From the NCBI GenBank assembly GCA_017991415.1, contig JAGOQR010000001.1:341992-405991 (forward strand): DNA of 64,000 bases. Reading direction: 5' to 3'. The stretch comes from Candidatus Magasanikiibacteriota bacterium (GTDB lineage Bacteria; Patescibacteriota; Patescibacteriia; Magasanikbacterales; GWA2-37-8). Of this stretch, positions 3,242 through 30,968 are shown piece by piece. The translations under genes and the position numbers were made by a program. The notes beneath the pieces are model-generated. The model was not told where the DNA came from. It was given only the letters and a program-made list of their open reading frames with translations, and did not search any database. Within the stretch, counting starts at the first letter, position 1. The number at the start of each line of letters is the position of its first letter.

Positions 3242-3296
3242 ACCAACGTGCATATCAGTGATTATCCGAATGATTATAATTGATATGCGCGTTGGT
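3242..3296. repeat. imperfect 16-bp inverted repeat (hairpin, 23-nt loop) at the AT-to-GC composition boundary
   Basis: ACCAACGTGCATATCA (3242-3257) pairs with TGATATGCGCGTTGGT (3281-3296) with 1 mismatch. Confidence 0.5.
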
Positions 3297-3301
3297 AGCC
3301 A

Positions 3302-3313
3302 GGTCAATTGACC
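3302..3313. promoter_or_regulatory. perfect 12-bp palindrome GGTCAATTGACC immediately upstream of the small GC-rich ORF
   Basis: Self-complementary sequence read directly. Lies 10 nt upstream of the ATG at 3323, in an operator-like position. Confidence 0.4.
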
Positions 3314-3322
3314 TAGGACAAC

Positions 3323-3514
3323 ATGCAGGCTTGCCCTGCCCAGTGGGCTCTGTCAAAGAAGACGTTCATGGCGACTTACAATCCCTGGACTGTGAGAATC
3401 TTGACTGCGATTGGTGTCATCCTCCTGGTCACAATGACCACGATCGTAGCCAAGGACATCATCTCGCACAAGGCGCCCCAACCACAAAGGCTCCTTGCCC
3501 CACCCAAGAAGTAG
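3323..3514 (+). CDS. small predicted membrane protein (63 aa) in GC-rich cassette 1
   Basis: ATG preceded by AGGA (3315-3318). Single TM segment (ILTAIGVILLVTMTTIVA), basic C-terminus, TAG stop. Codon composition is GC-rich unlike its neighbours. The TM-coding core is homologous to the minus-strand ORF at 30577-30861. An antisense GTG-start ORF (3353-3577) is the alternative frame. Confidence 0.35.
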   Translation: MQACPAQWALSKKTFMATYNPWTVRILTAIGVILLVTMTTIVAKDIISHKAPQPQRLLAPPKK

Positions 3515-3560
3515 CATGAGAAGAACGGTCCCTGACCCCCTCCTCAACAGCGTTTCCCCT

Positions 3561-3590
3561 GCACCTCCGCCAACCACGGAGGTGCCACTA
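3561..3590 (+). terminator. GC-rich hairpin (9-bp perfect stem GCACCTCCG/CGGAGGTGC, 7-nt loop) then a T-rich tail
   Basis: Stem 3561-3569 / 3577-3585, followed by CACTATTTAT. Candidate terminator of the cassette-1 ORF. Confidence 0.4.
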
Positions 3591-3597
3591 TTTATGC

Positions 3598-3626
3598 TTG
3601 ACAGGTGGCCAAAACCCTGCTAGAAT
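3598..3626 (+). promoter_or_regulatory. sigma70-like promoter TTGACA-N17-TAGAAT for the downstream DHH gene
   Basis: TTGACA 3598-3603, 17-nt spacer, TAGAAT 3621-3626. About 33 nt upstream of the ATG at 3660. Confidence 0.6.
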
Positions 3627-3659
3627 AGCCTGTTATTTAGATTTTTTGACATACTAACC

Positions 3660-4811
3660 ATGGCTCTAAATGAAACCGAACAATTACGCCATCTTCTTGA
3701 AAAGAGTGGGCATATTTTACTCGTTGTTAATTCCAACCAAAATACGGATGCTCTTTGTGCAGCCATGGCTTGGAAAAAACTACTTGAAAAACAACGCAAG
3801 CAAGTCGACATTATTGCCGACAATTTTGTTTTACCAAAAAACCTTAAATTCCTGAAAGGTCTCGAAGAGGTGCAGCCGCAGCTGTCTCATTTACAAAAAT
3901 TTATTCTAAAAGTAGATATTAGCAACGTAAAAATAGATACACTCAGCTATGATATAAAGGACAACTGGCTCTCAATTTATTTAACACCAAAACAAGGGAT
4001 CATCACTAAAAATGAATTGCGCACTGCTCAATCTGGTTTAAAATACGACCTAATCATTTCAATAAATGCCCAAGACCTAGAGTCGCTTGGAAATATTTTT
4101 TTAAACAACACTGATTTATTTTACAAAGTACCAATTATTAATTTTGACAACCATCCTGGCAATGAACATTTTGGACAAGTGAATTTTGTAGATTTAAGCG
4201 CCACTTCCATCTCCGAAAGTATTTATAAAATAATGGCCCAACTATTTGAACCAGATATTGATGCCACGATGGCAAATTTTTTATTAACAGGGATGATTAG
4301 CCAAACACAAAGTTTCAAAACGTCTAACGTCAGTCCTAACACGCTCAATCTCGCCAGCAAATTAATGAGCTTAGGCGCAGATCGAGAAAAAATTGTAAAA
4401 AATTTATATCGCACCAAATCTATTGCCTCACTTCGTATTTGGGGTATTGCACTTACCCATATGGAAAACGATCCAAAACTTGGATTGGTTTGGACCACAA
4501 TTACCAGAGAAGATTTTGCCCGAACTGGAGCAAGCGAAGACGAGCTACAAGACCTTACCGAAGAACTAGTCCACAACTCTCCTGAAGCCAAAATTATTCT
4601 TTTCCTTAACGAAGATACGAAAGGAGAAAATAAAGTGCATGGTTTTCTATACTCAGACAAACAACATGATGCTAAATTACTTTTACAAGGCTTTCAACCA
4701 GAAGGCAATAAAAAAACTGCCTCTTTTGTAATAGCTGACAAAACTATAAAGGAAGTGGAAACGGAAGTGCTCGCAAAAATTAAAAAAATGATTGGCGATG
4801 CGAACCTTTAA
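3660..4811 (+). CDS. DHH-family phosphoesterase (NrnA-like oligoribonuclease / pAp phosphatase)
   Basis: 383 aa. DHH-superfamily N-terminal domain with an NFDNHPGN motif and a DHHA1-like C-terminal region. Size fits NrnA. Confidence 0.65.
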   Translation: MALNETEQLRHLLEKSGHILLVVNSNQNTDALCAAMAWKKLLEKQRKQVDIIADNFVLPKNLKFLKGLEEVQPQLSHLQKFILKVDISNVKIDTLSYDIKDNWLSIYLTPKQGIITKNELRTAQSGLKYDLIISINAQDLESLGNIFLNNTDLFYKVPIINFDNHPGNEHFGQVNFVDLSATSISESIYKIMAQLFEPDIDATMANFLLTGMISQTQSFKTSNVSPNTLNLASKLMSLGADREKIVKNLYRTKSIASLRIWGIALTHMENDPKLGLVWTTITREDFARTGASEDELQDLTEELVHNSPEAKIILFLNEDTKGENKVHGFLYSDKQHDAKLLLQGFQPEGNKKTASFVIADKTIKEVETEVLAKIKKMIGDANL

Positions 4812-6385
4812 ATAAGAGGCTCCCCGGTCATATCTTCTGGCTGACCTACTCCCAATAATTTTAAAACCGTTGGTGCCACGTCTGCCAACACACCGACCGG
4901 TTGCATGAGACTTAAATCGCCTTCTGGCGGATCTCCAGACGGCCCTGCTTGACCCATAAAATCTTGCCCTATAATAATAAGCGGAACTGGATTAGTTGAA
5001 TGCTCTTTATCCATTTCTCCTGTTTGTAAATTACTCATTTCTTCGGCATTGCCATGATCTGCTGTTATTACCATAACTCCATTTTGGGCTAAGGTATGAT
5101 TGGCAATATCTCCTAAACACTTATCAATAATTTTGCAGGCCTTGATACCTGCCTCCAAATTGCCTGTGTGGCCAACCATATCCGCATTGGCGAGGTTGAG
5201 GACAATAAAATCATACCCCCCCTTATCAATTATTTTATTTACTTCTTTGGTAATTTCTAAAGCAGACATTTCTGGTTTTTGATCATAGCTTGGCACTCGA
5301 GCCGAAGGAATAAGTAATCGCTCTTCTCCTGGAAACGGCTCTTCTACTGTGCCATTTAGGAAAAAGGTTACGTGGGCATATTTTTCTGTTTCTGCAACAT
5401 GCATTTGTTTGAGACCTGCTTTGCTTATGACCTCCGCCAAACAATTATGCACTGCCATTGGAGCAAACGCTACGGCCACTGGTAAGTTTTTTTCATACTC
5501 CGTCATAGTCACCACAAACAAATCTTTTATATACTCTTTAGAAAATTTGTTAAAAGATGGCACTGCAAAAGCCTCGGCTAGCTCGCGACCTCTATCTGGT
5601 CTAAAGTTAAAAAATATTACCGCATCACCAGAATCTACTGTTGCGACAGGTTTGTTTTTTGATGTTAAAACTGTTGGAATAAATTCTTCATCGTAATTTT
5701 TTTGCGCATACGACTGGTCGATGGCTGCAAGCGCATCGCTATTATTTCTATCCGCTTTACCTGCCACAATAGCTTGGTACGCTTTTTCACACCTATCCCA
5801 TCTATTATCTCGATCCATAGCAAAATAACGCCCCGATAAAGTTGCAATCTTACCAACTTTTAATGTATCTATTTTTTCTTGAAGCTCGGTGATAAACTCT
5901 CGGCCAGAATTATATAGCGCATCACGCCCATCAAGAATAGCGTGCACAAAAACATTTTTGGTTAATTTTTCTTTTTTACATAATTCAAGCAACGCATACA
6001 GATGCTCATTACTTGAATGAACATTACCAGAACTTACCAACCCAACTAAATGAAGCTTGGAATTATTTTTTTTAACCTTTTCTATAGCTGATAAAAAAGC
6101 TTGATTTTCAAAAAAACTACCTTCGTCGATTGACCTGTTTATTCGTGGGCAACTTTGATAATAGACTCTTCCCGCCCCAATATTAAGATGGCCGACTTCG
6201 GAGTTTCCCATTTCTCCAAACATTAAACCCACCTCGTTGCCAGAGGCGTGCACAGTCATGGTTGGGTAATTTTGAAGAAATTTTGCAAAATTTGGTGTTT
6301 CCGCTTTGGTAATAGCATTACCATCTACACTCGGAGCCACTCCCCAACCATCCATTATCACTAGCACAACAGGCTTATACTTCAT
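4808..6385 (-). CDS. gpmI: 2,3-bisphosphoglycerate-independent phosphoglycerate mutase (copy 1)
   Basis: 525 aa. N-terminal MDGWG and catalytic serine motif GNSEVGHLNIGAGR. Alkaline-phosphatase superfamily iPGM architecture. Confidence 0.9.
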   Translation of the reverse strand: MKYKPVVLVIMDGWGVAPSVDGNAITKAETPNFAKFLQNYPTMTVHASGNEVGLMFGEMGNSEVGHLNIGAGRVYYQSCPRINRSIDEGSFFENQAFLSAIEKVKKNNSKLHLVGLVSSGNVHSSNEHLYALLELCKKEKLTKNVFVHAILDGRDALYNSGREFITELQEKIDTLKVGKIATLSGRYFAMDRDNRWDRCEKAYQAIVAGKADRNNSDALAAIDQSYAQKNYDEEFIPTVLTSKNKPVATVDSGDAVIFFNFRPDRGRELAEAFAVPSFNKFSKEYIKDLFVVTMTEYEKNLPVAVAFAPMAVHNCLAEVISKAGLKQMHVAETEKYAHVTFFLNGTVEEPFPGEERLLIPSARVPSYDQKPEMSALEITKEVNKIIDKGGYDFIVLNLANADMVGHTGNLEAGIKACKIIDKCLGDIANHTLAQNGVMVITADHGNAEEMSNLQTGEMDKEHSTNPVPLIIIGQDFMGQAGPSGDPPEGDLSLMQPVGVLADVAPTVLKLLGVGQPEDMTGEPLI

Positions 6386-6420
6386 AAACAGGAAAATTTT
6401 AATCTTTCAAATATTAATAA

Positions 6421-7971
6421 CTAAACTAAACTCTGGGCTGTCATCTCTTTTGGCTTTTCTATATCCATCATTTTTAAAATGGTTGGCGCTACATTTGCCA
6501 ATTTTCCATTTGCTAACTTACGCGGTGTTTTTACCCGACTATTTATCAGAATAAACGGTACTGGGTTAATAGAGTGTTCGGTGTCTGGCTCCCCACTTTC
6601 TGGGTTTATCATTACTTCAATATTACCATGATCGGCAGTAATAATTCCCTGACCATGATTTTTGATTACTGCATTCATTATTTGTTCTATACTTTTATCA
6701 ATAACAGAAACGGCTTTTTGAGCGGCCATAAAATTACCCGTATGCCCCACCATATCCATGTTCGCAAAATTTACTGCAATAAAATCATACTCCTTTGAGT
6801 TTATAGCTGCAACCGTATAATTGGTCAGCTGCTTGGCGCTCATCTCTGGTTTTTCAGCAAAATTTTTAGCATCTGGGGAAGCAATTTTTACCCAATTTTC
6901 ATCACAAAAATGTTGCGCATAGCCTCCGTTAAGAAAATACGTAATGTGAGCAAATTTTTCAGACTCAGCTATATACATCTGCTTTCGCGGACACAGGGAT
7001 TGCACCAAACCGTTAGTTACATCTCGACTCGGAAACGCCGTTAATACCCCTGGTAAATCTGGACCAAAATCTGAGAGAGCAACAAAACGAATATTTTTTG
7101 GACATTTCGATCTAGTAAATGAATCGAGGTTCATTTCTTTAAAATTAGGCTGCACAAATGCTTTGGTAAGTTCTCGAGCCCGATCACTGCGTAAATTAAA
7201 AAAGAATACTGCGTCATTATTTTTTATCGTTGCCACTGGACGATTTTTTTCCATAATAACTGTGGGGGCCAAAAATTCGTCTGTGTCACCCATATTATAC
7301 GAATTACGCAAAGCTTCTTCGGGCGAACTAGCTTTTTTTCCTTTACCCAAAACGAGAGCGTCATAGGCCTGCTTAACTCGCTCCCAACTCTTATTCCTAT
7401 CCATTGCATAAAATCGCCCCATTAGAGTTGCGACTTTTTCATTGCCATGAAAATATTTTTCTAATAATCTTAAATGCTTTTGTGCTTCATACTGACCAGA
7501 ATCTCTGCCGTCAGTAAAAAGATGCAAATATACTTTTTTAATCTTCTCTCTATGAACTAAATCAAGCAGCGCATACAAATGCTCTGGGTTAGAGTGAGCA
7601 CTATTATGATTGGAGAGGAGCCCCATTAAATGCACAGCGGTATTATATTTTTTTACATGGTGCATAGCCTGATGAAATGCATTGTTTTTGAAAAATACAC
7701 CATCTTTAATTGATTGGGATATGTAGAGTGCGTCCTGAAGAACAACCCGTCCCGCCCCCAAATTGAGGTGGCCTGCTTCACTGTTACCTTCTTGGCCTGG
7801 AAACAACCCAACACTTTCACCACTTGCCTCTAATGTACAGTTTGGATATTTTTTAATCGCTGAAAAATAAAACGGGGCTGTTTTGGGTGTGATGGGATTA
7901 CCTGGGTCTTTCTGACTACCCACACCCCAACCATCAACAATAATTAAAACGGTGTTTTTTGTTTCTGCCAT
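6421..7971 (-). CDS. gpmI: 2,3-bisphosphoglycerate-independent phosphoglycerate mutase paralog (copy 2)
   Basis: 516 aa with VDGWG and GNSEAGHLNLGAGR motifs. Clearly a paralog of the adjacent gene, with the catalytic Ser retained. Confidence 0.85.
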   Translation of the reverse strand: MAETKNTVLIIVDGWGVGSQKDPGNPITPKTAPFYFSAIKKYPNCTLEASGESVGLFPGQEGNSEAGHLNLGAGRVVLQDALYISQSIKDGVFFKNNAFHQAMHHVKKYNTAVHLMGLLSNHNSAHSNPEHLYALLDLVHREKIKKVYLHLFTDGRDSGQYEAQKHLRLLEKYFHGNEKVATLMGRFYAMDRNKSWERVKQAYDALVLGKGKKASSPEEALRNSYNMGDTDEFLAPTVIMEKNRPVATIKNNDAVFFFNLRSDRARELTKAFVQPNFKEMNLDSFTRSKCPKNIRFVALSDFGPDLPGVLTAFPSRDVTNGLVQSLCPRKQMYIAESEKFAHITYFLNGGYAQHFCDENWVKIASPDAKNFAEKPEMSAKQLTNYTVAAINSKEYDFIAVNFANMDMVGHTGNFMAAQKAVSVIDKSIEQIMNAVIKNHGQGIITADHGNIEVMINPESGEPDTEHSINPVPFILINSRVKTPRKLANGKLANVAPTILKMMDIEKPKEMTAQSLV

Positions 7972-7985
7972 AGATGAGAAAATAA

Positions 7986-9233
7986 TTATATTCCTAGCTC
8001 TGCTTCGATCTCCATTAAACGGTTATACTTTTCTATTCGCTCCGAACGAGACATTGATCCTGTTTTTATAAATTCTGAATTAACCGCTACTGCCAAATCT
8101 GCAATAAAGGTATCCGCAGTTTCACCACTACGATGGGAAACAAATATTTGATACTTATTTTCTCGGGCTAATTTTACTGCGGCTATAGTTTCTGACAAAC
8201 TACCAATCTGATTTATTTTTATCAACACTGAATTGGCTACTTTTTCTTTGATACCTCTGGCAATACGTTCTGGATTAGTAACAAAAAGATCATCACCAAC
8301 AAGCGTTACTTTTGCACCTAGCTCTTTTGTTAAGAGAGTCCAATTCTCCCAATCATCTTCGGCTAAAGCATCTTCAATAGAAACGATCGGGTATTTTTTA
8401 ACCCAATTTTTTAAATTATCAATCATTTTACCAGCGTTCCAAGGCTGTTTTTTACTCAAAAAATAATAATTTTTATTCCTATAAAACTCTGAAGCAGCAA
8501 TATCAAGAGCTAAAAATACTTGCTTACCTGGTTCCCATCCAGCTAATTTAATAGCTTGCATGATAAGCTGCAACCCTCTTTCATTATTAAGTAATTCTGG
8601 CGCAAAACCGCCTTCGTCTCCTACACCAGTGGCATACCCTTTTTGACTAAGCAGCCCAGCCAACGCATGAAAAATTTGTGAACCCATACGAACACGCTCT
8701 CGCAAAAGTTTGTGTTTAGGCATAATCATAAACTCTTGGATGGACAAACCATTGTCTGCATGACGACCACCATTAATGATATTCATACCCAAAATAGGCA
8801 TCTTGTATTCTGTAGAGGCAATCTTATACACCTGTCGTATATATTTATATAATGGCATGTTGGCTGCCATAGCCCCGACACGCGCCACTGCCAAAGAAAC
8901 AGATAAAATAGCATTGGCGCCCAATTTTGATTTATTTTTTGTTCCATCAAGCGCAATCATGGCCGCATCAATTTTTTCTATTTCACTTACTTCCATACCA
9001 ACAATTACTCGAGCAATTTCGGTATTAACATTTTTGACTGCTTTGAGAACGCCCTTTCCTCCATATCGCAAACCACCATCTCGAAGCTCCCAGGCTTCAT
9101 GAGCACCTGTCGAAGCGCCAGAAGGCACTTTGGCAACAGCACTTAATCCATTTTCCAAAATTACCTTGGCTTCAACAGTTGGATTTCCTCTTGAATCAAG
9201 AACCTCACGAGCGATAATTTGTTTGATTTTCAT
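7986..9233 (-). CDS. eno: enolase
   Basis: Start set at the internal MKIKQIIAREVLDSRGNPTVEA (ATG at 9231-9233). The ORF track extends N-terminally with a non-ATG start. Full enolase signature present. Confidence 0.9.
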   Translation of the reverse strand: MKIKQIIAREVLDSRGNPTVEAKVILENGLSAVAKVPSGASTGAHEAWELRDGGLRYGGKGVLKAVKNVNTEIARVIVGMEVSEIEKIDAAMIALDGTKNKSKLGANAILSVSLAVARVGAMAANMPLYKYIRQVYKIASTEYKMPILGMNIINGGRHADNGLSIQEFMIMPKHKLLRERVRMGSQIFHALAGLLSQKGYATGVGDEGGFAPELLNNERGLQLIMQAIKLAGWEPGKQVFLALDIAASEFYRNKNYYFLSKKQPWNAGKMIDNLKNWVKKYPIVSIEDALAEDDWENWTLLTKELGAKVTLVGDDLFVTNPERIARGIKEKVANSVLIKINQIGSLSETIAAVKLARENKYQIFVSHRSGETADTFIADLAVAVNSEFIKTGSMSRSERIEKYNRLMEIEAELGI

Positions 9234-9305
9234 ATGCAAATTGAATGAAAAATAGAGATAAAACCCTAATTCTAGCCAGATTATTATACCACAGCCCTTA
9301 CAAAC

Positions 9306-9336
9306 AAAAAAGAGCCCTTTCGGGCTCTTTTTTAAT
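9306..9336 (-). terminator. rho-independent terminator (bidirectional hairpin AGAGCCC-TTTC-GGGCTCT flanked by A/T runs)
   Basis: Stem 9311-9317 / 9322-9328, T-run 9329-9333. Directly after the stop of the minus-strand SIMPL gene. Confidence 0.6.
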
Positions 9337-9339
9337 TTT

Positions 9340-10176: not shown

Positions 10177-10231
10177 ATATCTCCTTCTGGATTATTCCCC
10201 GTAAGAAAAATAATCCGATTAAAATTAATTA

Positions 10232-11416: not shown

Positions 11417-11509
11417 TTTGCTCTTTTATACGAATAACAAAAAATATATATACTATATAATACATATTATACTACTTTTGTTACATTTGGAGAAGAAGCT
11501 TGTGGAGAT

Positions 11510-12523: not shown

Positions 12524-12528
12524 ACAAA

Positions 12529-13062: not shown

Positions 13063-13067
13063 ACAGC

Positions 13068-13763: not shown

Positions 13764-13766
13764 GAT

Positions 13767-15167: not shown

Positions 15168-15172
15168 TGAAC

Positions 15173-20768: not shown

Positions 20769-21146
20769 TTAGTTTCTAATACTTTTTAATTTGCGCAAAA
20801 CCTGATCTTTCTTAACACTCAGCTCATCATATTGCCTCTGAAAGAATCTACTTTCCTCGTTTAATTTGTTAAGAAGCTCACTATTTGATTGATATTTTAA
20901 AGCCATTTCCTGATAAGATCGTACCTGACTTTTAGCACGTCTTAGCTCGTCATCTATCGATTCAAGTAATAATAGTAGAGAATCTTCAGTTTCTTGACTA
21001 CTTGCATTCTGATTATTTTCAACAGAGGCAGCAGGTTGCACGTGCTCAACCCCTTCTTCAACCATAACCGAAGGCAAAAAATCAGCAGGCTGGATACTGT
21101 TATAATTTTGCTTAGGATAGATTTCACCTGAAACTTCTGGCATCAT
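20769..21146 (-). CDS. hypothetical coiled-coil protein (125 aa)
   Basis: Acidic N-terminal half. The C-terminal half has heptad-like charged repeats (ELRRAKSQVRSYQEMALKYQ...). Confidence 0.5.
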   Translation of the reverse strand: MMPEVSGEIYPKQNYNSIQPADFLPSVMVEEGVEHVQPAASVENNQNASSQETEDSLLLLLESIDDELRRAKSQVRSYQEMALKYQSNSELLNKLNEESRFFQRQYDELSVKKDQVLRKLKSIRN

Positions 21147-21208
21147 AATTTAGAATTTAATTATTTTTTCGCCTCACCAACTACGAATTTTCATAATTGG
21201 ATTTAGCG

Positions 21209-21231
21209 GCTCGTCTTGGGTGAAGACGAGC
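21209..21231 (-). terminator. GC-rich hairpin GCTCGTCTT-gggtg-AAGACGAGC downstream of the cassette-2 gene
   Basis: Perfect 9-bp stem. About 46 nt past the minus-strand stop. The flanks are not U-rich, so it may be a stability or processing element rather than an intrinsic terminator. Confidence 0.4.
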
Positions 21232-21276
21232 TAGCGGAAATAGACCCGGCCGCGCTTTTGATTGCGCTTTCAGGTA

Positions 21277-21870
21277 CTATTGGAACGGAGACCAGCGAAC
21301 TTCCACCACGGGACGCTCTTCGCTGACCTTGATGGTCTGGGGGCTTGTTTCACACCGATGCTCACAGGGGAGCCTCGTCATCATCACCGTATAGGTTCCC
21401 GGTGCCGAAAGGTAGATCTCGCAGGGCTCGCGAACACCTTCGTAGTGTCCACACCACTTGCGATCCTGACCAGGAACATCCATCTGCACGGAGAAGACAC
21501 CGATTTCAGGAAACACGAGGCGGTAGTCCTTCTCCAGTTGAATGGTGACGTTGAGCCCTTCACCTATTCTACTATCAAACAAGATGCTCAAGCCCTGATC
21601 CCTGTACCACTTGGGCGGCCTGAGTCCCTTGGGCGCCTCGATCTGGATCGAGTTGAGACCAGGTCCGACAGAACCTCGGAACGAAGTGATACCCGCATCC
21701 AGGTGGTTGATCTGCACCTTCGAAGTGACGGACTGTCCCTGGAAGGTCGTCTCAACCGTAGTGATGCCCTTGATGGGGAAGAGCTTCCAAGAGGCGAAGC
21801 CGTTGTAGCAGAGCGCCACCGCCGCAGCGATAAGCGCAGAGATGAATACAAACCAAAACACTTTACGCAT
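21277..21870 (-). CDS. GC-rich exported/membrane-anchored hypothetical protein (197 aa), compositionally foreign
   Basis: GAAGGGG Shine-Dalgarno 6 nt before the ATG at 21868-21870. N-terminal signal/TM (MRKVFWFVFISALIAAAVALCY). Four Cys near the C-terminus. GC3-rich codons unlike the neighbours. The overlapping plus-strand ORF (21262-21915) is Arg-rich, a typical mirror-frame artefact. Confidence 0.55.
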   Translation of the reverse strand: MRKVFWFVFISALIAAAVALCYNGFASWKLFPIKGITTVETTFQGQSVTSKVQINHLDAGITSFRGSVGPGLNSIQIEAPKGLRPPKWYRDQGLSILFDSRIGEGLNVTIQLEKDYRLVFPEIGVFSVQMDVPGQDRKWCGHYEGVREPCEIYLSAPGTYTVMMTRLPCEHRCETSPQTIKVSEERPVVEVRWSPFQ

Positions 21871-21908
21871 TTGAGCCCCTTCGATTCGATTATGCCTTGT
21901 TCAGGCGA

Positions 21909-21960
21909 GTTTTAATGTGTGAAAAACCCACTTACTTACAGGCTATTCACACATTAAAAC
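21909..21960. repeat. perfect 15-bp inverted repeat GTTTTAATGTGTGAA ... TTCACACATTAAAAC in the leader of the cassette-2 gene
   Basis: Arms 21909-21923 and 21946-21960 with a 22-nt loop. Sits between the predicted minus-strand promoter (-10 at about 21990) and the start codon at 21870. Confidence 0.45.
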
Positions 21961-21989
21961 TATTACATCCACTTTAGATATAACTGCAT

Positions 21990-22051
21990 AGCATAGCACA
22001 AAATTTGGCTTTTGTCAACATATTGACAAACACAAGCAATGATGCTACTAT
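21990..22051. promoter_or_regulatory. divergent promoter pair built on an 18-bp palindrome TTGTCAA-CATA-TTGACAA
   Basis: Plus strand has TTGACA (22023-22028), a 17-nt spacer and TACTAT (22046-22051) for rpmE. Minus strand has TTGACA (rc of 22013-22018), a 17-nt spacer and TATGCT (rc of 21990-21995), which would drive the cassette-2 gene. Confidence 0.5.
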
Positions 22052-22085
22052 GTGAGCACCTTTAAATAAAACCTTTCCAAATTTT

Positions 22086-22382
22086 ATGAAGAAAGAAATT
22101 CACCCAGAATATCACAATGATACAGAAGTGATCTGCGCGTGCGGTAACAAATTTACCACTGGCAGCACCCTAAAATCTATCCGTATTGAGTTGTGCAATA
22201 AATGCCATCCTTTTTATACTGGCAAACAAAAATTTGTTGACACCGCTCGTCGTGTAGAGAAATTCAAAGAAAAAACAGACAAACAAACTGCTGCTGCCGC
22301 TACTCGCAAAGGCCAAAAAGTAAAGAAGGCTGCTGTGGCTGCAAAAAAATCTGCCAAAAAAGCCGCTGACAAAAAGGCTTAG
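22086..22382 (+). CDS. rpmE: 50S ribosomal protein L31 with a Lys/Ala-rich C-terminal extension
   Basis: [10 protein letters not shown]...CACGNKF...[10 protein letters not shown]. The Zn-ribbon cysteines are present. Confidence 0.9.
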
Positions 22383-22396
22383 CTTTAATAATCTCA

Positions 22397-22440
22397 AAAA
22401 ACAGACTATAATACTTTTTATGTTTAGTCTGTTTTTTTAA
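22397..22440 (+). terminator. hairpin AAACAGACTA ... TAGTCTGTTT then a T7 run after rpmE
   Basis: 10-bp stem with a 16-nt loop, followed by TTTTTTT (22433-22439). Confidence 0.45.
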
Positions 22441-22476
22441 TAACATTATTAAAGATATAAAAAAACAGCCAAGATT

Positions 22477-23559: not shown

Positions 23560-23569
23560 TCTAATCCAG

Positions 23570-25030: not shown

Positions 25031-25037
25031 GTTCGAT

Positions 25038-25889
25038 ATGAATATTCATGAAATACAAAAAAAATTGCACACCTATACCCCTCTCGATATTGAGGTATTA
25101 CTTGGAGCAGCCATAAAAAAACCAAGAGAATTTTTATATACTCACCCTGAATACAAACTAACACTTATTCAGAGCATCCGTTTACGATACAGTATTTTTT
25201 TATATAAAAAAGGTTATTCCGTAGCCGCTATTATTGGTCATAAAGAATTTTATGGCTTAGATTTTTTGGTAAACAAGCACGTACTTATTCCTCGCCCTGA
25301 TACAGAACTTATGGTAGAGGAAGCTATAAAAACTCTTGGCCATGAACTAGAAACAAAAAATACCAACATCATATATATAGACGTGGGTACAGGCAGCGGC
25401 TGCATTCCAATTTCTGTTGTAAAAAATTTACCAAAATTAGAGCAGGCATACGCTATCGACAATTCCAATTTGGCGCTCAAAGTAGCTAAGAAAAATGCCA
25501 AAAAACACCGGGTGCATATAGATTTTTTACACGGTAATTTACTTGAACCTATCTTAAAAAATAAATCACTCCTTGGCACTCCTTGCTTTTTTACTATCAC
25601 TGCCAATCTTCCGTACCTCAGCGAAGCTCAATTTAGATCCGAACCTTCTATTTGGCGAGAACCAAAAAATGCTCTAGTGGCAAAAAATAACGGCCTTGAT
25701 TTGTACGAAAAATTACTAAACCAAATTAAAGATCTGCCTAATTTTTGCCAGATGTTTCTATTCCTTGAAATTGACCCATCTCAAACAGAGGCAATTGTCC
25801 AGCTGGTTTTCAAATATATTCCTAAAGCACAGATTAAAATAAAAAAAGATCTAGCTGACCTAGATCGTCTGGTGATTATTTCTCTATAA
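25038..25889 (+). CDS. prmC: release factor glutamine N5-methyltransferase (HemK/PrmC)
   Basis: Start at MNIHEIQKK. SAM-binding IYIDVGTGSGCI and catalytic ITANLPYL (NPPY variant). Confidence 0.85.
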   Translation: MNIHEIQKKLHTYTPLDIEVLLGAAIKKPREFLYTHPEYKLTLIQSIRLRYSIFLYKKGYSVAAIIGHKEFYGLDFLVNKHVLIPRPDTELMVEEAIKTLGHELETKNTNIIYIDVGTGSGCIPISVVKNLPKLEQAYAIDNSNLALKVAKKNAKKHRVHIDFLHGNLLEPILKNKSLLGTPCFFTITANLPYLSEAQFRSEPSIWREPKNALVAKNNGLDLYEKLLNQIKDLPNFCQMFLFLEIDPSQTEAIVQLVFKYIPKAQIKIKKDLADLDRLVIISL

Positions 25890-25897
25890 AAGTTACT

Positions 25898-26974
25898 CTA
25901 CGGGCTCGAATTAGCTGCGGATACTTTCATATTTTTATCAACTACTTCAATCCAGGTGTTACCTGGAGTAAGCACAATTTCCTGGCCATTTGCATCATAA
26001 AAACGAGTACGGCCTGACAGACTTTTTTTCTCCCATGTTCCGTGCACGACCTCACCTTTTCTTAAAATAGTCGCCTCACCACTACCCACAGTTTTTATTT
26101 CTTGCCTACCCTTATCATCATTGGCAATATCTTCTACGCTGGTAACTTGAACTATAATATTGCGAGCCCACACTTCCGAACCATCTCTGTCTCGTTCATT
26201 TTTACTATTTATACTGCGCTGATACTGCATCGTAGCAGAATCATATTTCCAAGCTATCGTATACCCAACACTAAAAGTAATTTGTAACTCACTACTACTT
26301 GCTACGCTACTACCAACATCCTGATCAAACTTCCAAGCCATATCTGCAGTAAACAATGAGCTCGAGTTCGCTCGCCTATCTAACATTGCTTGCCAATTTT
26401 TACTGCTGATAAATAAATTATGTGGGGCAAAATGATGTGTACCGCGCCAAAAATATTGCCCCCAGAAAAACTCATTGGCATCAAAAATTTTACGAGGCTT
26501 AATAGCAGCGAGCGCTTGTGGTGACCCACCAGAATGAACATATAAGCCATCACCATATTCTTGAATCCAATCTAAAAAATATAGCCTGGCACTTCGTACA
26601 GGGCCAACTTCAGCTACTTCTTGCGCGCTATCAAAAATCGCAAAATAACGAGTAATACCACCTTCTACCATTGCTTCATATACGATTTTGGCACGAGAAA
26701 CACCAGACTGCGGCCATGCATCAACGTGATTATCTATCATAATACCTACTGCTCGCACACTTGTTTCTTCCTGAGAATTAACTGCTGCACCATCAAGCGG
26801 ATTTTGAAACTCTATTTTTTTAGCACTGTGTAAAACGCCCTCTTGGAACGGAAACACAACTAGGGATCTTTCTGAAAATCTATACCAAATTGCCGACCCA
26901 AGAATAAAAATCAAAAAAAATATAGCATATACCGAATACGGACGAATCCTTGATAAACGAAAAGGCATTTTCAT
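25898..26974 (-). CDS. DUF3048-like (YerB family) membrane-anchored protein
   Basis: 358 aa. N-terminal TM, then an ITRYFAIFDS-type motif and a C-terminal beta-rich domain. Tentatively assigned to the YerB/DUF3048 family. Confidence 0.45.
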   Translation of the reverse strand: MKMPFRLSRIRPYSVYAIFFLIFILGSAIWYRFSERSLVVFPFQEGVLHSAKKIEFQNPLDGAAVNSQEETSVRAVGIMIDNHVDAWPQSGVSRAKIVYEAMVEGGITRYFAIFDSAQEVAEVGPVRSARLYFLDWIQEYGDGLYVHSGGSPQALAAIKPRKIFDANEFFWGQYFWRGTHHFAPHNLFISSKNWQAMLDRRANSSSLFTADMAWKFDQDVGSSVASSSELQITFSVGYTIAWKYDSATMQYQRSINSKNERDRDGSEVWARNIIVQVTSVEDIANDDKGRQEIKTVGSGEATILRKGEVVHGTWEKKSLSGRTRFYDANGQEIVLTPGNTWIEVVDKNMKVSAANSSP

Positions 26975-27000
26975 ATATGTAATAGTAGCAAAATAAAATT

Positions 27001-27032
27001 AAAACTGCCAGGGCAAAAGCTCTGGCAGTTTT
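27001..27032 (-). terminator. rho-independent terminator after rplY (AAACTGCCAG ... CTGGCAGTTT hairpin + T-run)
   Basis: 10-bp stem 27002-27011 / 27022-27031. T-rich 3' flank on the minus-strand reading. Confidence 0.55.
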
Positions 27033-27056
27033 AATTTTGGAAGTATATTGTTTATT

Positions 27057-27746
27057 TTATTTCTTTTCAGTCTCTTCTTTCTTTTCAGCGCCGTCTGCAG
27101 CTTCAGCACCTTCTTCATCTTCTTTCTTCTTACCCGCTGTTTCGATCTTAGTAAGATCGACTGGAGCAGCTGCTTCCATAGCCTTCATTTCTTCTTCAGT
27201 CATAGCTGGGGTAGCTTTGGCTACCAAATCATCTGCTTGAGGACTGGTAATAGTAACAGAACTTGGAACAACTAAATCTTTAACTTTAATTGCATCGTCA
27301 AAAGTTTTAAGAGAGGAAATATCAACATCAATGTGAGAAATCAAATCTTTTGGCAAACATTCAACTTCTACAGAAGAGATATTATGCATCAAAGTACCGC
27401 CTTGTTCTTTAATAACTGACGCTTCTCCAACAAAACGCAACTCAACCGTAGCAGTCATGGACTTGTTCATATCGATACGGCGTAAATCTACGTGGATAAT
27501 TTGGTCAGTAACTGGATCGTATTGAATATCGTGAATCAAAATTTTACCTTCTGCTTTTTCATCCAAGAATAAATCGATCAAACTAGCTTCACCAGCTTCG
27601 TTATACAATCGTACAAATTCGTCATGACTTAACGTAACAGACAAAGCTTCTCCGCCCATTCCATATACCACTGCTGGTAAAACAGTTTTAGTACGAATTT
27701 TTTCTCCTTTTTCTTCTCTTTTTTTGGCCGATAATTTTAATGTCAT
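27057..27746 (-). CDS. rplY: 50S ribosomal protein L25 / general stress protein Ctc, with an acidic KE-rich C-terminal tail
   Basis: N-terminal L25 fold motif (KTVLPAVVYGMGGEALSVTL) and a C-terminal beta-barrel domain. Confidence 0.85.
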   Translation of the reverse strand: MTLKLSAKKREEKGEKIRTKTVLPAVVYGMGGEALSVTLSHDEFVRLYNEAGEASLIDLFLDEKAEGKILIHDIQYDPVTDQIIHVDLRRIDMNKSMTATVELRFVGEASVIKEQGGTLMHNISSVEVECLPKDLISHIDVDISSLKTFDDAIKVKDLVVPSSVTITSPQADDLVAKATPAMTEEEMKAMEAAAPVDLTKIETAGKKKEDEEGAEAADGAEKKEETEKK

Positions 27747-27751
27747 AAATA

Positions 27752-28120
27752 TTATTTCAATTTTGCCGAATCGGCGGAATCGCGCCTTACAGCAGTAATA
27801 AAATCTGGACTATTTATAAATTGATGCGCCTCTATAGTTTCATCTACTGAAATAGAGGGCAGTTTGTACAATTTTTGCACATCCTTGAAACTCAAATCAG
27901 TAATCATTCCTACCGTACTCACACCTTTTGCCAAGGTCATTACCATGGCAATAAAGTAACCATGACAACCTTCACACGTAAAGTGCACAAATTTAGCTTC
28001 GCTTTCGTTTGCAAACAATTGTATTGCCTCTGACTTATAATCACGATTACAAACCGGGCAATGACTGATTAATTTTAAAGTTTTTCGCCAAGAATCTGAG
28101 TTGCTGTTGTTTGCCAACAT
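27752..28120 (-). CDS. hypothetical small zinc-ribbon protein (122 aa)
   Basis: CPVCN ... CEGCHG (two CxxC pairs about 28 residues apart). Confidence 0.45.
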   Translation of the reverse strand: MLANNSNSDSWRKTLKLISHCPVCNRDYKSEAIQLFANESEAKFVHFTCEGCHGYFIAMVMTLAKGVSTVGMITDLSFKDVQKLYKLPSISVDETIEAHQFINSPDFITAVRRDSADSAKLK

Positions 28121-28184
28121 ATATTTTTGTATGCCCTATACTAAATTATTTTAAGAAAAATGTCAAGACGTGGAAGATGCCCGT

Positions 28185-29279
28185 TTAATACCTTCGCACC
28201 ATCATACTCTCTAGAATACCAATGAGCAGTAAGTTTATTATCAGCGACGACCCCCCGTAGCTCACAAAAGGTAGTGTTACCCCCGTAATAGGCAAAAGCC
28301 CCAAATTTGCCCCAACATTGGTAATTAACTGGACAAAAAAGAGAATAAGAATACCAGTGGCTGTGGTCGCTACAAAATCGTCATCTGATTTCCTAATAAT
28401 AGATACGAGGCGCCAAAATATAAGGGCAAATAACGCCAGCATAACAACTACCCCAGCTAACCCCAACTCTTCTCCAATTACAGAGAACACGAAGTCTGTT
28501 TGTGCTTCTGGCAAGAAGCGCAACTGACTTTGCGAACCAAAACCCAAACCACGCCCAAATACCTGGCCAGCGCCAATAGCTATTGTAGACTGAGCAATGT
28601 TATAGCCACTACCGAGCGGATCTCTCTCTGGATTAATAAAATTAGCAACCCGATCTTTTTGATAATCTTGTAAAAAGAAAAACCAGCTTGCGACTGCAAG
28701 CAAGGCAACTAGTGCTACAAATCCAGCTAAGTATAAACGCCTGGCTCCAACTGCCCAGATCATACCAAACCAAATAGCTCCAAGCAGCAGCGCCGAACCC
28801 AAGTCTGGCTGCAACATCACAAGTCCAATAAACAAAAAAGAGACTGCACCCGTACCCAAAAAAAATAACGGGCGATCAAACCTACGTCCAAACCTCGACA
28901 CAATATAGGCAATCATAAGAATCAAGCCAATTTTAGCCATCTCAACTGGCTGAAAAGAAAATCCAAAAAAAGAAAACCAACCTTTCGTACCGCGAATAGT
29001 CTCTCCAAAAAATAGGACGCCTGCTAATAACAACAGGGAAAAAAAATACCACCATTTCGCCAAATAACGCCAGAGAATATGCTGACTGATACTCGCAATA
29101 AATAAAAGAAGCAGACCTAAACAAAAAGCTATCAATTGTTTTTTAAAATAAAAAAGCTCTGAACCTCGCGAAAGGTCTACACTATATACCGAAGCGAGCC
29201 CCATCATAACTAAAAACACCACGCAGATAAAAAGCTGCCAATCAAAACTACGAGGTGATAATTTTCCAATATCTAGCAT
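28185..29279 (-). CDS. SEDS-family peptidoglycan glycosyltransferase (RodA/FtsW)
   Basis: 364 aa with 10 TM segments. Conserved SEDS motifs (GWFSFFGFSFQP ... DFVFSVIGEELG). Confidence 0.85.
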   Translation of the reverse strand: MLDIGKLSPRSFDWQLFICVVFLVMMGLASVYSVDLSRGSELFYFKKQLIAFCLGLLLLFIASISQHILWRYLAKWWYFFSLLLLAGVLFFGETIRGTKGWFSFFGFSFQPVEMAKIGLILMIAYIVSRFGRRFDRPLFFLGTGAVSFLFIGLVMLQPDLGSALLLGAIWFGMIWAVGARRLYLAGFVALVALLAVASWFFFLQDYQKDRVANFINPERDPLGSGYNIAQSTIAIGAGQVFGRGLGFGSQSQLRFLPEAQTDFVFSVIGEELGLAGVVVMLALFALIFWRLVSIIRKSDDDFVATTATGILILFFVQLITNVGANLGLLPITGVTLPFVSYGGSSLIINLLLIGILESMMVRRY

Positions 29280-29305
29280 ATATTAATTACACATGAATCA
29301 CCCAC

Positions 29306-30247
29306 TTATGGAATATATACCGAATCATCGTACACATTAATTATCGGATAGATTGCAATTTCGGAAATATTTAAGTTTTGAGCAAAACTACGAAGGTCTA
29401 CATCTTTTACTTCAAGCGAATTAATTCTGTCGAGCTGCAGAGGCAAGACACCAACCAGCTGTCCATTTTGGAGTAGTGCTACATAAAAATTAGGCAATAT
29501 ATAATTGTACGGACTATTGTTGGTAAGCTTAAACTGTACAGCATCAGCGTTATTGCCTTCTTGGGCCAAAGATTTTGAAAAAACAAAATCAGTTACTTGA
29601 AAATTTAATCTGTACCGCTGATAGTCTATCGGACTGGCAATAGCATGATTAGAAATACGTTTGTATTGTATATTTTCTAAAACAATTACTGGCGACTCGC
29701 TGCCTACATCGCCCACTCCTAGACTGGCTGCCAACCTACTTTCACCAGGAAGTAAAAAAGTCTTTTGCATTTTTGTTTTTATACCACTCACAACAAAATA
29801 ATAATCAAACTGTATCAAAAAATTGCTATTAGGGTTCACTAGCTCTGCCACTAGATCATACTTATTATTCCCACTAGAAAAAACATGCGTACTTACTACC
29901 TGCACAGGCTGAGCAGCAAAATGAGGTTGGATTCCTGTGTAATTTATAGACGCGGTCAAACTTCTTTCTAATTTTTGCTGATCAGTATAGCCAAGCAAAA
30001 ATACAGCCCATTTCCAAATACTAAAAATAATAAAAGCAAGATTAATAACAATTAAAGTAATTACAACAATTTTATAAACCAAGGCTTTGTTATGCAACAA
30101 CCAAAAACCCCATTTTAATTCACTAGAACTAAATTCTTTGGTCGGATCTTCGTATTTGGTAAAACTGGATTTAGGAAGAACCTTCCCCGAAGATACATCA
30201 TTTATTTTTTCTTCGTTGTGGTTGTTAGAATTATAAATGTTAAGCAT
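29306..30247 (-). CDS. hypothetical membrane-anchored protein (about 313 aa)
   Basis: Start set at the internal MLNIYNS. The ORF track extends 42 codons upstream. One TM segment (IVVITLIVINLAFIIFSIW), then a large extracytoplasmic domain. Confidence 0.45.
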   Translation of the reverse strand: MLNIYNSNNHNEEKINDVSSGKVLPKSSFTKYEDPTKEFSSSELKWGFWLLHNKALVYKIVVITLIVINLAFIIFSIWKWAVFLLGYTDQQKLERSLTASINYTGIQPHFAAQPVQVVSTHVFSSGNNKYDLVAELVNPNSNFLIQFDYYFVVSGIKTKMQKTFLLPGESRLAASLGVGDVGSESPVIVLENIQYKRISNHAIASPIDYQRYRLNFQVTDFVFSKSLAQEGNNADAVQFKLTNNSPYNYILPNFYVALLQNGQLVGVLPLQLDRINSLEVKDVDLRSFAQNLNISEIAIYPIINVYDDSVYIP

Positions 30248-30405
30248 ACCAAAATGGTAATTTATTTTTGCAATTATTACTACAGTATACCTTAAAATAA
30301 CTTTTTTAAAAACTCTGTAAAATATTTCATAAAATAAAGGCCGCCCTCCGAAGCACAGACACTGCACGAGCACCTCAGATTTATTATATGATTAGAAAAA
30401 ATAAA

Positions 30406-30435
30406 ACACAAGCCAGTATTTGGCTTGTGTTTTTT
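30406..30435 (-). terminator. hairpin ACACAAGCCA-gtatt-TGGCTTGTGT flanked by A/T runs; downstream of the cassette-3 minus-strand ORF
   Basis: 10-bp perfect stem 30406-30415 / 30421-30430. T5 run 30431-30435 and A-run on the other side (bidirectional). Confidence 0.5.
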
Positions 30436-30576
30436 ACGCTGTTCTCAAATGTAAAAATTTAAAAACAATGCAACGATGCCAGCCGACCACGTGTCCTTGT
30501 AGGACTTGTCCCTGAACGGGAACTCTGGTGGAAGGCTGGGTAGGAGTTGAAGGAAGGGGTGTGGATCACGCAGCGA

Positions 30577-30861
30577 CTAGAGGCTGCAGATGACGATGGT
30601 CGCAACGATCATGGCGATCGCGACCAGCCCCATGAGCACCATCACGAAGGCCTTGTTCCCGCGGGACGAAGTCTCCACGGTGACCGAAGGCAGCGCCTGG
30701 ACGACCTCCGTCTGGACGGGCTTCGCGCTGGCCGCCGACGCCTGGAACGCATCGTTCTTGGGTGCCGCCTGGGACGGGTACGGGTGGTACGGCACCGACA
30801 GACGGGTGTCAGAGGTGGCGCAGTCAGTGTTGGCATCAGAACGCAAGGCAGGTCCGCGCAT
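30577..30861 (-). CDS. small protein with a C-terminal TM segment (94 aa) in GC-rich cassette 3
   Basis: ATG at 30859-30861 preceded by GGGGGG. C-terminal FVMVLMGLVAIAMIVATIVICSL. The TM-coding core and 3' flank are homologous to the cassette-1 ORF (3323-3514). An overlapping plus-strand ORF (30590-30865) is the alternative frame. Confidence 0.35.
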   Translation of the reverse strand: MRGPALRSDANTDCATSDTRLSVPYHPYPSQAAPKNDAFQASAASAKPVQTEVVQALPSVTVETSSRGNKAFVMVLMGLVAIAMIVATIVICSL

Positions 30862-30941
30862 GTAGGTTCCCCCCGAGAATGACGTTGAGCCAAACAGAAA
30901 CTGTTGGCTATGGTCAGGATGATATTACCCTCTTCATCAAT

Positions 30942-30968
30942 CCATGTAGAGACAATGTCTCTACATGG
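30942..30968. promoter_or_regulatory. 27-bp perfect palindrome CCATGTAGAGACA-a-TGTCTCTACATGG upstream of the cassette-3 ORF
   Basis: 13-bp arms 30942-30954 / 30956-30968. About 80 nt upstream of the minus-strand ATG. Confidence 0.5.

Follow-up and report, generated by a model that had tools for sequence, protein, structure and literature searches.

The nearest known kind of system to the genes described here is the hypervariable accessory-gene hotspot between core genes. Hotspots of this type, also termed 'islets' or flexible islands, resemble them in their fixed place between syntenic core genes, their varying content, the occurrence of empty sites and the presence of fast-evolving envelope proteins that belong to no family. 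Accessory and ORFan genes are usually AT-richer than the core. Members of the candidate phyla radiation (CPR), or Patescibacteria, are believed to lead a life attached to other cells, and most of their surface proteins are ORFans whose origin is unknown. In hok mRNA, the fbi and tac elements pair the 5′ with the 3′ region, an arrangement resembled by helices reported below. In the vls cassettes of Borrelia, the guanine plus cytosine (GC) content is 49%, against 28.6% in the chromosome, a difference that the authors argue to be maintained by selection, and the coding-strand GC skew is +0.52 (PMC11499132). Here, we analyse a stretch of 64,000 nt (the window) of contig JAGOQR010000001.1 from a Candidatus Magasanikiibacteriota bacterium (assembly GCA_017991415.1, forward-strand positions 341,992-405,991; position 1 is its first letter), and in particular three GC-rich units in it, designated c1, c2 and c3. 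We consider it reasonably probable that these are three unrelated, resident, lineage-restricted and very fast-evolving genes for single-pass membrane proteins, and not one mobile element.

The overall GC of the window is 38.4%, and across its whole length only three runs longer than 280 bp have a GC of at least 0.50, at 3281-3640, 21171-21910 and 30461-30940. The open reading frame (ORF) and 3′ untranslated region (3′UTR) of the respective units reach 0.56 (c1), 0.55 (c2) and 0.60 (c3), with z = 5-6 against a background of 300-bp windows (mean 0.381, sd 0.035). The computed profile (0.55-0.60 versus 0.38) thus bears out a preliminary description of this DNA, which had noticed three GC-rich segments in AT-rich surroundings. 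The flanking genes, identified by means of Pfam, are divergent genes for ValRS and a DHH phosphoesterase around c1; a 125-aa gene (h125), S2 and EF-Ts on one side of c2, with L31 and RF-1 on the other; and a 355-aa membrane gene and GyrB, again divergent, around c3. These identities and orientations place all three islands in divergent intergenic regions (valS and DHH, the rpsB block and rpmE, the membrane gene and gyrB), as the same description had it, at three of the approximately six divergent junctions of the window. It was also right in assigning a small predicted membrane protein to each segment, since transmembrane (TM) prediction finds one strong hydrophobic segment in the ORF of every island.

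The deviation is strongest at third codon positions, where the GC content (GC3) of the c1, c2 and c3 frames is 0.72, 0.69 and 0.86, respectively, versus 0.29-0.36 in ten core genes and a genome value given as 0.32. The jump sits at the start codon and continues through the 3′UTR, the leaders being at 0.36-0.40. The three units have a common anatomy, which comprises a sigma70-like promoter, a structured 5′ leader of ordinary GC, a GC3-rich ORF with a GC-rich 3′UTR and an intrinsic terminator, and each of them is co-oriented with, and upstream of, one core gene or operon (DHH for c1, h125-rpsB-tsf for c2 and the 355-aa membrane gene for c3). The layout establishes each island as a predicted monocistronic transcription unit of its own, located directly behind a sigma70-type promoter in a hub of divergent promoters.

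Related loci from metagenomes and genomes (about 140, given L-numbers here; P-numbers denote protein homologues from a profile search) were gathered by scans with RF-1 and a DHH alignment; a scan with the PMT_2 protein retrieved no relatives. The DHH protein itself is annotated as KBC69_01815 in a Candidatus Magasanikbacteria metagenome-assembled genome (MAG). Many GTDB MAG records among the loci L014-L044, which are Magasanikbacteria by synteny (RF-1 at 62-87% identity), are titled 'uncultured Gammaproteobacteria' or 'Candidatus Udaeobacter', and these titles are probably wrong. The synteny tsf-rpsB-(h125)-[slot]-rpmE-prfA-...-memb355-[slot]-gyrB and valS-[slot]-DHH is conserved. At these places the relatives have either short AT-rich intergenic DNA (an empty slot) or a GC-rich segment (an occupied slot): between ValRS and DHH, across dozens of related metagenome loci, the slot is empty or filled by a GC-rich segment of 500-1250 bp, and the memb355-gyrB and rpsB-rpmE slots are likewise empty or hold a GC-rich membrane-protein ORF. 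In some lineages a slot is empty or has extra genes. The leader, the unit ends and the position are kept in relatives while the ORF diverges until it is barely or not at all alignable, and the units are long-standing occupants of conserved slots.

The islands recur in independent assemblies. In particular, c2 is found with the same junctions and neighbours on eight contigs, c3 is 100% identical, both AT-rich junctions included, in an NCBI contig, and c1 is found in L076 and L077 with 89% nucleotide identity; in independent assemblies of the same strain the sequences of c2 and c3 are identical. The recurrence in independent assemblies shows that the islands are not assembly chimeras.

The c3 unit has a leader of about 190 nt between promoter and ORF and a GC-rich 3′UTR of about 115 nt between ORF and terminator, and shows the following features:

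31060-31088, minus strand: c3 promoter (TTGACA, 17 nt, TATACT; 11/12), kept in L010, L012, L014, L016 and L017

30906-30996, minus strand: structured 5′ leader (model R1) in which three helices stack into a rod of about 92 nt, with a perfect palindrome, 30942-30968, at its tip

30577-30861, minus strand: c3 ORF of 94 aa; about 30 N-terminal residues are conserved, the middle part is variable, of low complexity and subject to in-frame indels, and the C-terminus forms a TM tail anchor (residues 68-94)

30403-30433, minus strand: intrinsic terminator (13-bp stem and T-run)

30353-30371, minus strand: scar of a deleted gene, with a remaining ribosome-binding site (GAGGTG) and the 3′ half of a terminator

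The leader fold, derived from an alignment, has 34 pairs and −40.9 kcal/mol. The R1 covariance model finds one match per genome, only in this slot (window, L010, L012, L014, L016, L018 and L020; 85-107 bits), with a score on the sense strand about twice that on the antisense, and the leader matches no Rfam family. The palindrome reported earlier for this segment is the tip of the R1 rod (30942-30968). Behind this leader the ORFs vary widely. The c3 protein, annotated as the hypothetical protein KBC69_01950 in a Candidatus Magasanikbacteria MAG, has homologues at 78% and 65-69% identity, and its N-terminus is weakly similar to those of other ORFs in the slot (L017, E = 7e-5 over 28 aa; L020, 48% identity; L016, E = 0.28). 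The slot ORFs, relatives included, are 94, 90, 89, 78, 146 and 123 aa long, with GC3 of 0.73-0.86 (0.73-0.84 in L014, L016, L017 and L020); most of them end in a TM segment and they are barely alignable, while the 3′ end block and the terminator of the unit are kept. At the site of the scar, relatives carry, between c3 and the 355-aa gene, the gene of a putative lipoprotein of metzincin-like type with the motif HExxHxxGxxH (201 aa in L010/L011, 189 aa in L017). Two further observations concern this slot: L012 (1-290) has, between gyrB and the c3 promoter, an extra GC-rich 39-aa single-TM ORF with its own terminator, absent from the window, and L020 (16533-19697) encodes, beside a disrupted c3 homologue, a secreted protein of 1054 aa that has repeated segments and a signal-like segment at its N-terminus.

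The c1 unit lies between ValRS and DHH:

3084-3112, plus strand: c1 promoter-like site (TTGACA, 17 nt, TAGGGT, TG extension), read from the sequence and not called by the consensus scanner

3164-3307, plus strand: structured 5′ leader (model R2), with a GUGG/CCCA helix around a small hairpin, the invariant CCCAUUUCAAAA and a 21-bp hairpin at 3242-3296

3323-3514, plus strand: c1 ORF of 63 aa, with a single central TM segment (residues 21-48) and a basic Pro-rich tail

3561-3585, plus strand: terminator-like hairpin (9 bp, 7 of them G-C)

3598-3626, plus strand: DHH promoter after c1 (TTGACA/TAGAAT; 11/12)

An empty slot consists here of 110-280 bp of AT-rich DNA with back-to-back valS and DHH promoters. 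The c1 promoter site matches the position of the single DHH promoter in the empty-site relatives L082-L085, and it is conserved in L076, where the −10 box is TAGAGT; in the window, the first TTGACA (3084-3089) is placed to drive c1 and the second promoter (3598-3626) would serve DHH. The aligned leader has 28 pairs, 6 of which show compensatory changes among four sequences. It matches no Rfam family, and the R2 covariance model finds only the window, L076/L077, L078 and L081 (112-144 bits). Also in this case the palindrome noted earlier is a part of the leader, namely its 21-bp hairpin at 3242-3296. The GC of the c1 ORF by codon position is 0.47/0.45/0.72, and the exact protein has no record anywhere in the databases searched. 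The ORFs behind a c1-type leader are the 63-aa c1 itself and longer ones of 158 and 141 aa in L078 and L081, respectively; the latter two, which are faintly alike (E = 0.21), each have a Cys-rich domain in addition to a TM segment and a Pro-rich linker. It is probable that c1 derives from such a protein by truncation, as a relative or a remnant. Other occupants, all in the orientation of DHH, are ORFs of 88 aa (L088), 158 aa (L100), 226 aa (L106), 89 aa with GC3 of 0.90 (L114) and 199 aa (L121), so that the slot is occupied by diverse small GC-rich TM proteins.

Some observations were made next to this slot. In L076 (6104-6577) and L077 (1891-2364), a GC-rich ORF of 157 aa without TM segment lies at the convergent junction of DHH with the gene for cofactor-independent phosphoglycerate mutase (iPGM), equivalent to about 4811 in the window, from which it is absent; GC-rich accessory ORFs are therefore not limited to divergent junctions or to membrane proteins. 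Tandem paralogues of the mutase (Metalloenzyme/iPGM_N) lie side by side in the window at 4808-6385 and 6421-7971, and are kept in relatives. The ValRS of L078-L080 (901-4059) has 1052 aa and an inserted His_Phos_1 histidine-phosphatase domain, against 867 aa in the window.

The c2 unit, the longest of the three, lies between the rpsB block and rpmE:

21990-22018, minus strand: c2 promoter (TTGACA, 17 nt, TATGCT, TG-extended)

22023-22051: rpmE promoter, back-to-back with that of c2

21908-21961, minus strand: hairpin of the c2 5′UTR with a stem of about 15 bp, corresponding to the palindrome of the preliminary description

21277-21870, minus strand: c2 ORF of 197 aa, with a TM segment at residues 1-27

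21209-21231, minus strand: terminator-like GC-rich hairpin, with the h125-rpsB-tsf operon downstream and a similar hairpin in L013

The c2 promoter is homologous to that of the rpsB operon in empty-site relatives (L018, L015 and L017 were compared). In the same three empty-slot loci, the back-to-back −35 boxes of the rpsB-operon and rpmE promoters (TTGTCAA nnn(n) TTGACA; window 22008-22028) are kept. The leader occurs only where c2 is present, and comparison of the window with L007 and L013 reveals three compensatory changes in the pairs of its hairpin (U-A to G-C, U-A to C-G and G-C to A-U). The architecture of c2 comprises an N-terminal membrane anchor, a PEGA-like β-sandwich and then a Cys-containing 'PGPGxY' Ig/CnaB-like β-sandwich. 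An AlphaFold2 model, built with four distant homologues added to four close sequences, shows a confident fold with the β-sandwich domains outside the membrane, and points to a membrane-anchored cell-surface protein with two PEGA/CnaB-type domains. The c2 protein itself has no Pfam match at E ≤ 0.1, while its profile homologues P0011 (24.0 bits) and P0013 (29.8 bits) pass the 20.8-bit cut-off of PF08308 at the aligned region. Close homologues occur at the same place with 99, 81 and 80% identity. The profile search adds distant homologues of the same size with Pfam PEGA; in relatives P0011 and P0013 are encoded between rpmE and rpsB, and the P0011 locus (L013) is again GC-rich (GC3 0.71) with AT-rich flanks. 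In the nearest GTDB relatives without c2 there are gaps of 118-300 bp or other GC-rich ORFs (122 aa in L021, 210 aa in L022). As for the neighbouring h125 (20769-21146, 125 aa), it belongs to no Pfam family, its identity between genera is 32-53% where that of RF-1 is 84-86%, and its GC3 is 0.29.

Each segment thus has the palindrome and the GC-rich hairpin that had been attributed to it; the palindromes cannot be taken as element boundaries, being hairpins within 5′ leaders that are conserved in relatives. A single leader common to all three units was also considered and was ruled out by the finding that R1 and R2 match different slots.

In c1 and c3, a segment of the leader can pair with the 3′UTR:

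3210-3217, plus strand: c1 5′ partner AAACGCUG, predicted to pair with 3548-3555

3548-3555, plus strand: c1 3′UTR partner CAGCGUUU, directly after the flank motif earlier noted at 3535-3548

31010-31018, minus strand: c3 5′ partner UUGAAGGAA, a leader motif

30547-30555, minus strand: c3 3′UTR partner UUCCUUCAA, the core of the 3′ flank motif earlier noted for c3

The c1 segment is located after the invariant CCCAUUUCAAAA. In minimum free energy (MFE) folds of the full transcripts, the leader segment pairs with the 3′UTR in all four orthologous units of the c1 slot, with differing sequences and helix lengths of 8 bp in the window, 12 bp in L078 and 10 bp in L081; the 8-mer occurs three times in the window, two of which are this inverted pair. 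The c3 9-mer, TTGAAGGAA, has only two occurrences in the 64 kb, the inverted pair formed by the leader and the sequence just past the stop codon. Furthermore, CUUCCUU(C/G) is kept right after the stop in L010, L012, L014, L016 and L017 though the ORFs do not align, the leader motif is likewise conserved in relatives, a single pair of the helix is replaced in compensatory fashion in L017 (G-C to C-G), and MFE folds pair the motifs in three of five full transcripts. These predictions suggest that the c1 and c3 mRNAs may be closed by a long-range 5′-3′ helix. The conservation of the motifs in the c3 slot makes the core of the c3 3′ motif a real conserved element, one that is not evidence of kinship with c1.

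The coding status of the ORFs is indicated by the GC3 periodicity in the predicted frame and by their retention with in-frame indels. Their rates of change, as the ratio of nonsynonymous to synonymous substitutions (dN/dS), compare as follows:

c2: dN/dS 0.22, at about 80% aa identity to the compared relative

c1: dN/dS 0.37-0.5, at 83% aa identity to the compared relative (L076, in which the ORF is retained with a GTG start)

c3: dN/dS 0.57-1.2, at 69-78% aa identity to the compared relative

Flanking genes: dN/dS 0.01-0.09 (RF-1 99%; DHH 95.5% in the codon alignment, 96-97% by BLASTP/tblastn)

The dS of the units is of the same order as that of the flanks; the units therefore co-diverge with their surroundings, fitting vertical descent. 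The GC-richness is limited to the ORF and the 3′UTR and does not decay to the AT-rich level of the genome. Three-taxon parsimony on c2 gives 60 GC>AT versus 57 AT>GC changes (33:27 at third positions), where about 83% GC>AT would be expected if c2, with its GC3 of 0.69, were drifting to the core equilibrium of 0.32 (p = 7e-7). In c3, changes polarised by a third taxon are 13:6 GC>AT:AT>GC, against 93% expected (p = 0.0016), and core-gene controls are balanced or slightly AT>GC. The balanced substitutions, together with the GC-rich distant orthologues, argue against unameliorated foreign DNA and for active maintenance. The coding-strand GC skew is −0.21, +0.02 and −0.12 in c1, c2 and c3, respectively. 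None of the family scans (Pfam, PHROGs, PADLOC and NCBIfam) gave a match for c1 or c3, nor for another seven ORFs from the slots of relatives; the metzincin-like genes, present in relatives only, did match. Homologues outside the lineage were not found among 5.8 billion proteins, nor were outside donors or mobility genes.

The preliminary description had explained the islands differently, in that cassettes 1 and 3 were taken to have diverged from a single element, selfish or mobile, with promoter hubs as its insertion sites. This would account for the high GC, small TM protein, upstream palindrome and downstream hairpin common to all three units, for the patchy occupancy of the slots, and for two matches that are indeed in the sequence: a local DNA alignment of c1 with the reverse complement of c3 (27-29/40 nt, including the 35-nt match originally quoted) and a CU-rich motif behind both ORFs (13/15 nt). 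Both matches, however, are at chance level. The score of the former (23) is attained by 8% of mononucleotide shuffles and the latter has P = 0.13 under dinucleotide shuffles, so neither is a signal of kinship; comparison of coding sequences gives 25 for c1/c3, 29 for c1/c2 and 16-29 for c1 and c3 against eleven clearly unrelated GC-rich TM ORFs. To judge from these scores, the resemblance is what two TM helices in GC-ending codons give. BLASTP finds no alignment between c1 and c3 proteins even at E ≤ 100, the topology differs (central TM in c1, C-terminal tail anchor in c3), and the leaders are unrelated, each covariance model matching its own slot only. Moreover, neither terminal nor target-site repeats were found, the inverted repeats of the islands being internal hairpins; no transposase or integrase ORF lies in or adjoining the units, and no integrase is present in the ORF lists of the 64 kb. 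A search of the window gave no second copy of any island, and no template repeats or silent cassettes elsewhere in it. Among 158 GC3-rich ORFs of the related loci (about 120) no family occurs in two different slots, the families being confined to one slot among close relatives and 104 ORFs being singletons, and the dS matches that of the flanks. One mobile element is therefore a most improbable source of these units, an idea largely refuted already. Recent acquisition from a GC-rich source, for instance a host bacterium, with amelioration still to come, is less remote and still unlikely. It would agree with a GC3 of 0.69-0.86 against 0.32 in the genome, with ORFans that have no Pfam, NCBIfam, PHROGs or PADLOC family, with their patchy presence among relatives and with horizontal gene transfer (HGT), genomic islands included, which is reported to be common in Patescibacteria (PMC12455944). 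Against it stand the lack of any homologue beyond the lineage in the 5.8 billion proteins, and for c2 also in phage or plasmid records; the distant c2 homologues, equally GC-rich, in the same slot of related CPR genomes; the native leader and 3′ end carried by the c3-slot ORFs of relatives; the substitutions, which are balanced and not AT-ward; and the step in GC at the start codon, within a unit that has a native promoter and leader. Of the proposal that the segments are compositionally foreign or host-derived, the deviant composition stands, whereas no support was obtained for a host-derived acquisition or for a recent foreign origin; we infer that the latter is not the cause of the GC-richness.

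Three other explanations concern the way in which such loci might work. The small size, single TM segment and intergenic place of c1 and c3, their long structured leaders and the predicted 5′-3′ helix bracketing each ORF recall type I toxin-antitoxin loci of the hok/sok kind, in which a hydrophobic toxin stays untranslated through the folded, folded-back mRNA. We regard this as quite unlikely: no promoter-like site on the opposite strand was seen in or beside the c1 and c3 ORFs, and no antitoxin RNA is detectable from the sequence; with 63-94 aa the products exceed the toxins, which have fewer than 60 aa, and their slot orthologues are longer still (123-158 aa) and contain Cys-rich ectodomains and Pro-rich linkers; the loci are single-copy, with dN/dS of about 0.5-1.2 and no match to a toxin or antitoxin RNA of Rfam. 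Expression sites of antigenic variation by gene conversion, like vlsE of Borrelia, with the GC kept for switching and the silent donors elsewhere in the genome, would likewise combine hypervariable envelope genes of high GC, an AT-rich genome around them and inverted repeats beside the expression site, and the steady-state GC observed here points in the same direction as vls. This seems very unlikely, given the lack of silent or partial copies in the window and of a strong GC skew, a dS comparable to that of the flanks and the identity of same-strain assemblies. Finally, GC-rich islands in AT-rich genomes are often RNA genes, and the window's own tRNAs (at 38806 and 49171) have 55-60% GC, so the segments could have been structured non-coding RNA genes, or else chimeric assembly artefacts. 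Rfam 15 finds only these two tRNAs, both elsewhere than the islands, when the whole window is scanned at the gathering threshold, and chance-level matches only for each island at relaxed thresholds (E ≤ 5); the three-base periodicity, conserved ORFs, in-frame indels and confident c2 fold, with junctions present in independent assemblies, refute an explanation that is now hardly conceivable. One of the two tRNAs (38806-38880; tRNA-Ile, anticodon UAU by ARAGORN, 60% GC) itself lies at a divergent junction, without a GC-rich cassette. Two candidates had been set aside on other grounds, namely the target of a diversity-generating retroelement, no template-like repeat of any island being present in the 64-kb window, and integron attC sites, the palindromes being 5′ of the ORFs and within the transcribed leaders.

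If the three units are, as we favour, unrelated resident genes, their products would be accessory envelope or surface proteins, with c3 tail-anchored. Their rapid change would most likely reflect selection, diversifying or relaxed, on the surface of an episymbiotic cell in contact with host, phages or neighbours. The leaders, and in c1 and c3 the long-range helix closing the mRNA around the variable ORF, may provide post-transcriptional control or stability. Two processes could keep the GC high. One is a GC bias in the repair of mismatches, which would be numerous in recombination between divergent alleles, as in the hypothesis of GC-biased gene conversion in bacteria (PMC4450053); the other is selection acting on the mRNA or the DNA. 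Several points weigh against this account. The 63-aa c1 is called as a gene in no public assembly and the dN/dS of c3 is near 1, so that either could be a decaying or non-functional ORF. Support from predicted folds for exposure at the surface is limited to c2, and a tail-anchored c3 would be mostly cytoplasmic. Shuffle tests of the duplex energy of the c1 and c3 helices are only modest (P 0.008-0.31), and for this reason the helices are taken as suggestive only; a long-range pairing was also sought in c2 and nothing consistent was found. The parsimony polarisation uses three taxa at dS of about 0.5, at which direction can be mis-inferred, and h125, fast-evolving and yet AT-rich, indicates that evolutionary rate alone is insufficient for GC-richness.

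A bolder reading, to which we give a low probability, would see in these loci an undescribed expression platform, in which a conserved promoter, a structured leader and a 5′-3′ helix frame a hypervariable envelope ORF whose GC is actively maintained by a locus-specific process. That process, e.g. GC-biased gene conversion during frequent exchange of alleles or a dedicated diversification, would amount to a built-in surface variation of the episymbiont, which is likewise a speculative idea; and that such a platform exists in Magasanikbacteria, perhaps also in other CPR bacteria, is a suggestion made with equal caution.

The recurrence across Magasanikbacteria of a class of GC-rich, self-contained membrane-protein genes is nonetheless real: the preliminary description was correct in seeing compositionally deviant small membrane-protein genes at promoter hubs as a recurrent class, and this reaches far past the window, while their function and the cause of their composition are what we infer from the comparisons above. 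In the literature on Patescibacteria, general accounts of HGT were found and no description of GC-rich slots for small membrane genes; the maintained GC-richness, the conserved structured leaders before hypervariable ORFs and the possible 5′-3′ closing helices look new. The results suggest that a part of the CPR surface repertoire may sit in fixed slots at the promoter hubs of housekeeping genes, with native promoters, structured leaders and extreme turnover. The signature, a GC3 of 0.7-0.9 in a genome of 0.3, is simple to scan for and opposite to the common rule for accessory genes. If the stable GC is indeed due to biased gene conversion or to selection on the mRNA, the slots would offer a natural test of what opposes AT-biased mutation in bacteria. 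The two leader motifs, like the closing helices, may be counted as candidates for new cis-regulatory RNAs. Should the genes instead be merely relaxed ORFans, the slots would represent an ordinary hotspot of orphan genes.

In comparison with the systems already described, the islands resemble genomic islands in their atypical composition and patchy distribution and differ from them in having no outside homologues, no mobility genes and balanced substitutions. Unlike transposons and miniature inverted-repeat transposable elements, they have no terminal inverted repeats, target-site duplication, multiple copies or transposase. With integron cassettes they have in common a small, usually single-ORF module with an imperfect palindrome; here, however, the palindromes are located 5′ of the ORF in leaders, every unit is equipped with a promoter and a terminator of its own, neither array nor integrase is present, no attC-type core was seen (checked by eye only), and the units are single, scattered and not shared between sites. 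PEGA (PF08308) and CnaB/transthyretin-like surface proteins are related in kind to c2, which differs in being below every Pfam threshold, short, with two domains and conserved Cys pairs, devoid of any LPXTG or sortase signal and confined to one subclade of Magasanikbacteria. As in hok/sok mRNAs, c1 and c3 encode a small single-TM peptide behind a long folded 5′UTR, with a predicted 5′-3′ pairing that encloses the ORF, but they are larger, their orthologues have ectodomains, no antisense RNA was found and there is no relation in sequence or in Rfam. The likeness to Borrelia vls lies in a surface gene far GC-richer than its AT-rich genome, apparently maintained so, hypervariable and with inverted repeats near the site, and the difference in unrelated proteins and in the absence of a strong skew, of an array of silent cassettes within the window and of any variation seen within samples. 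Compared with hypervariable hotspots, finally, the slots of Magasanikbacteria have no associated integrase or tRNA and retain their native promoter, structured leader and 3′ end while the ORF changes, and their content is GC-richer than the core, with a composition that is apparently stable.

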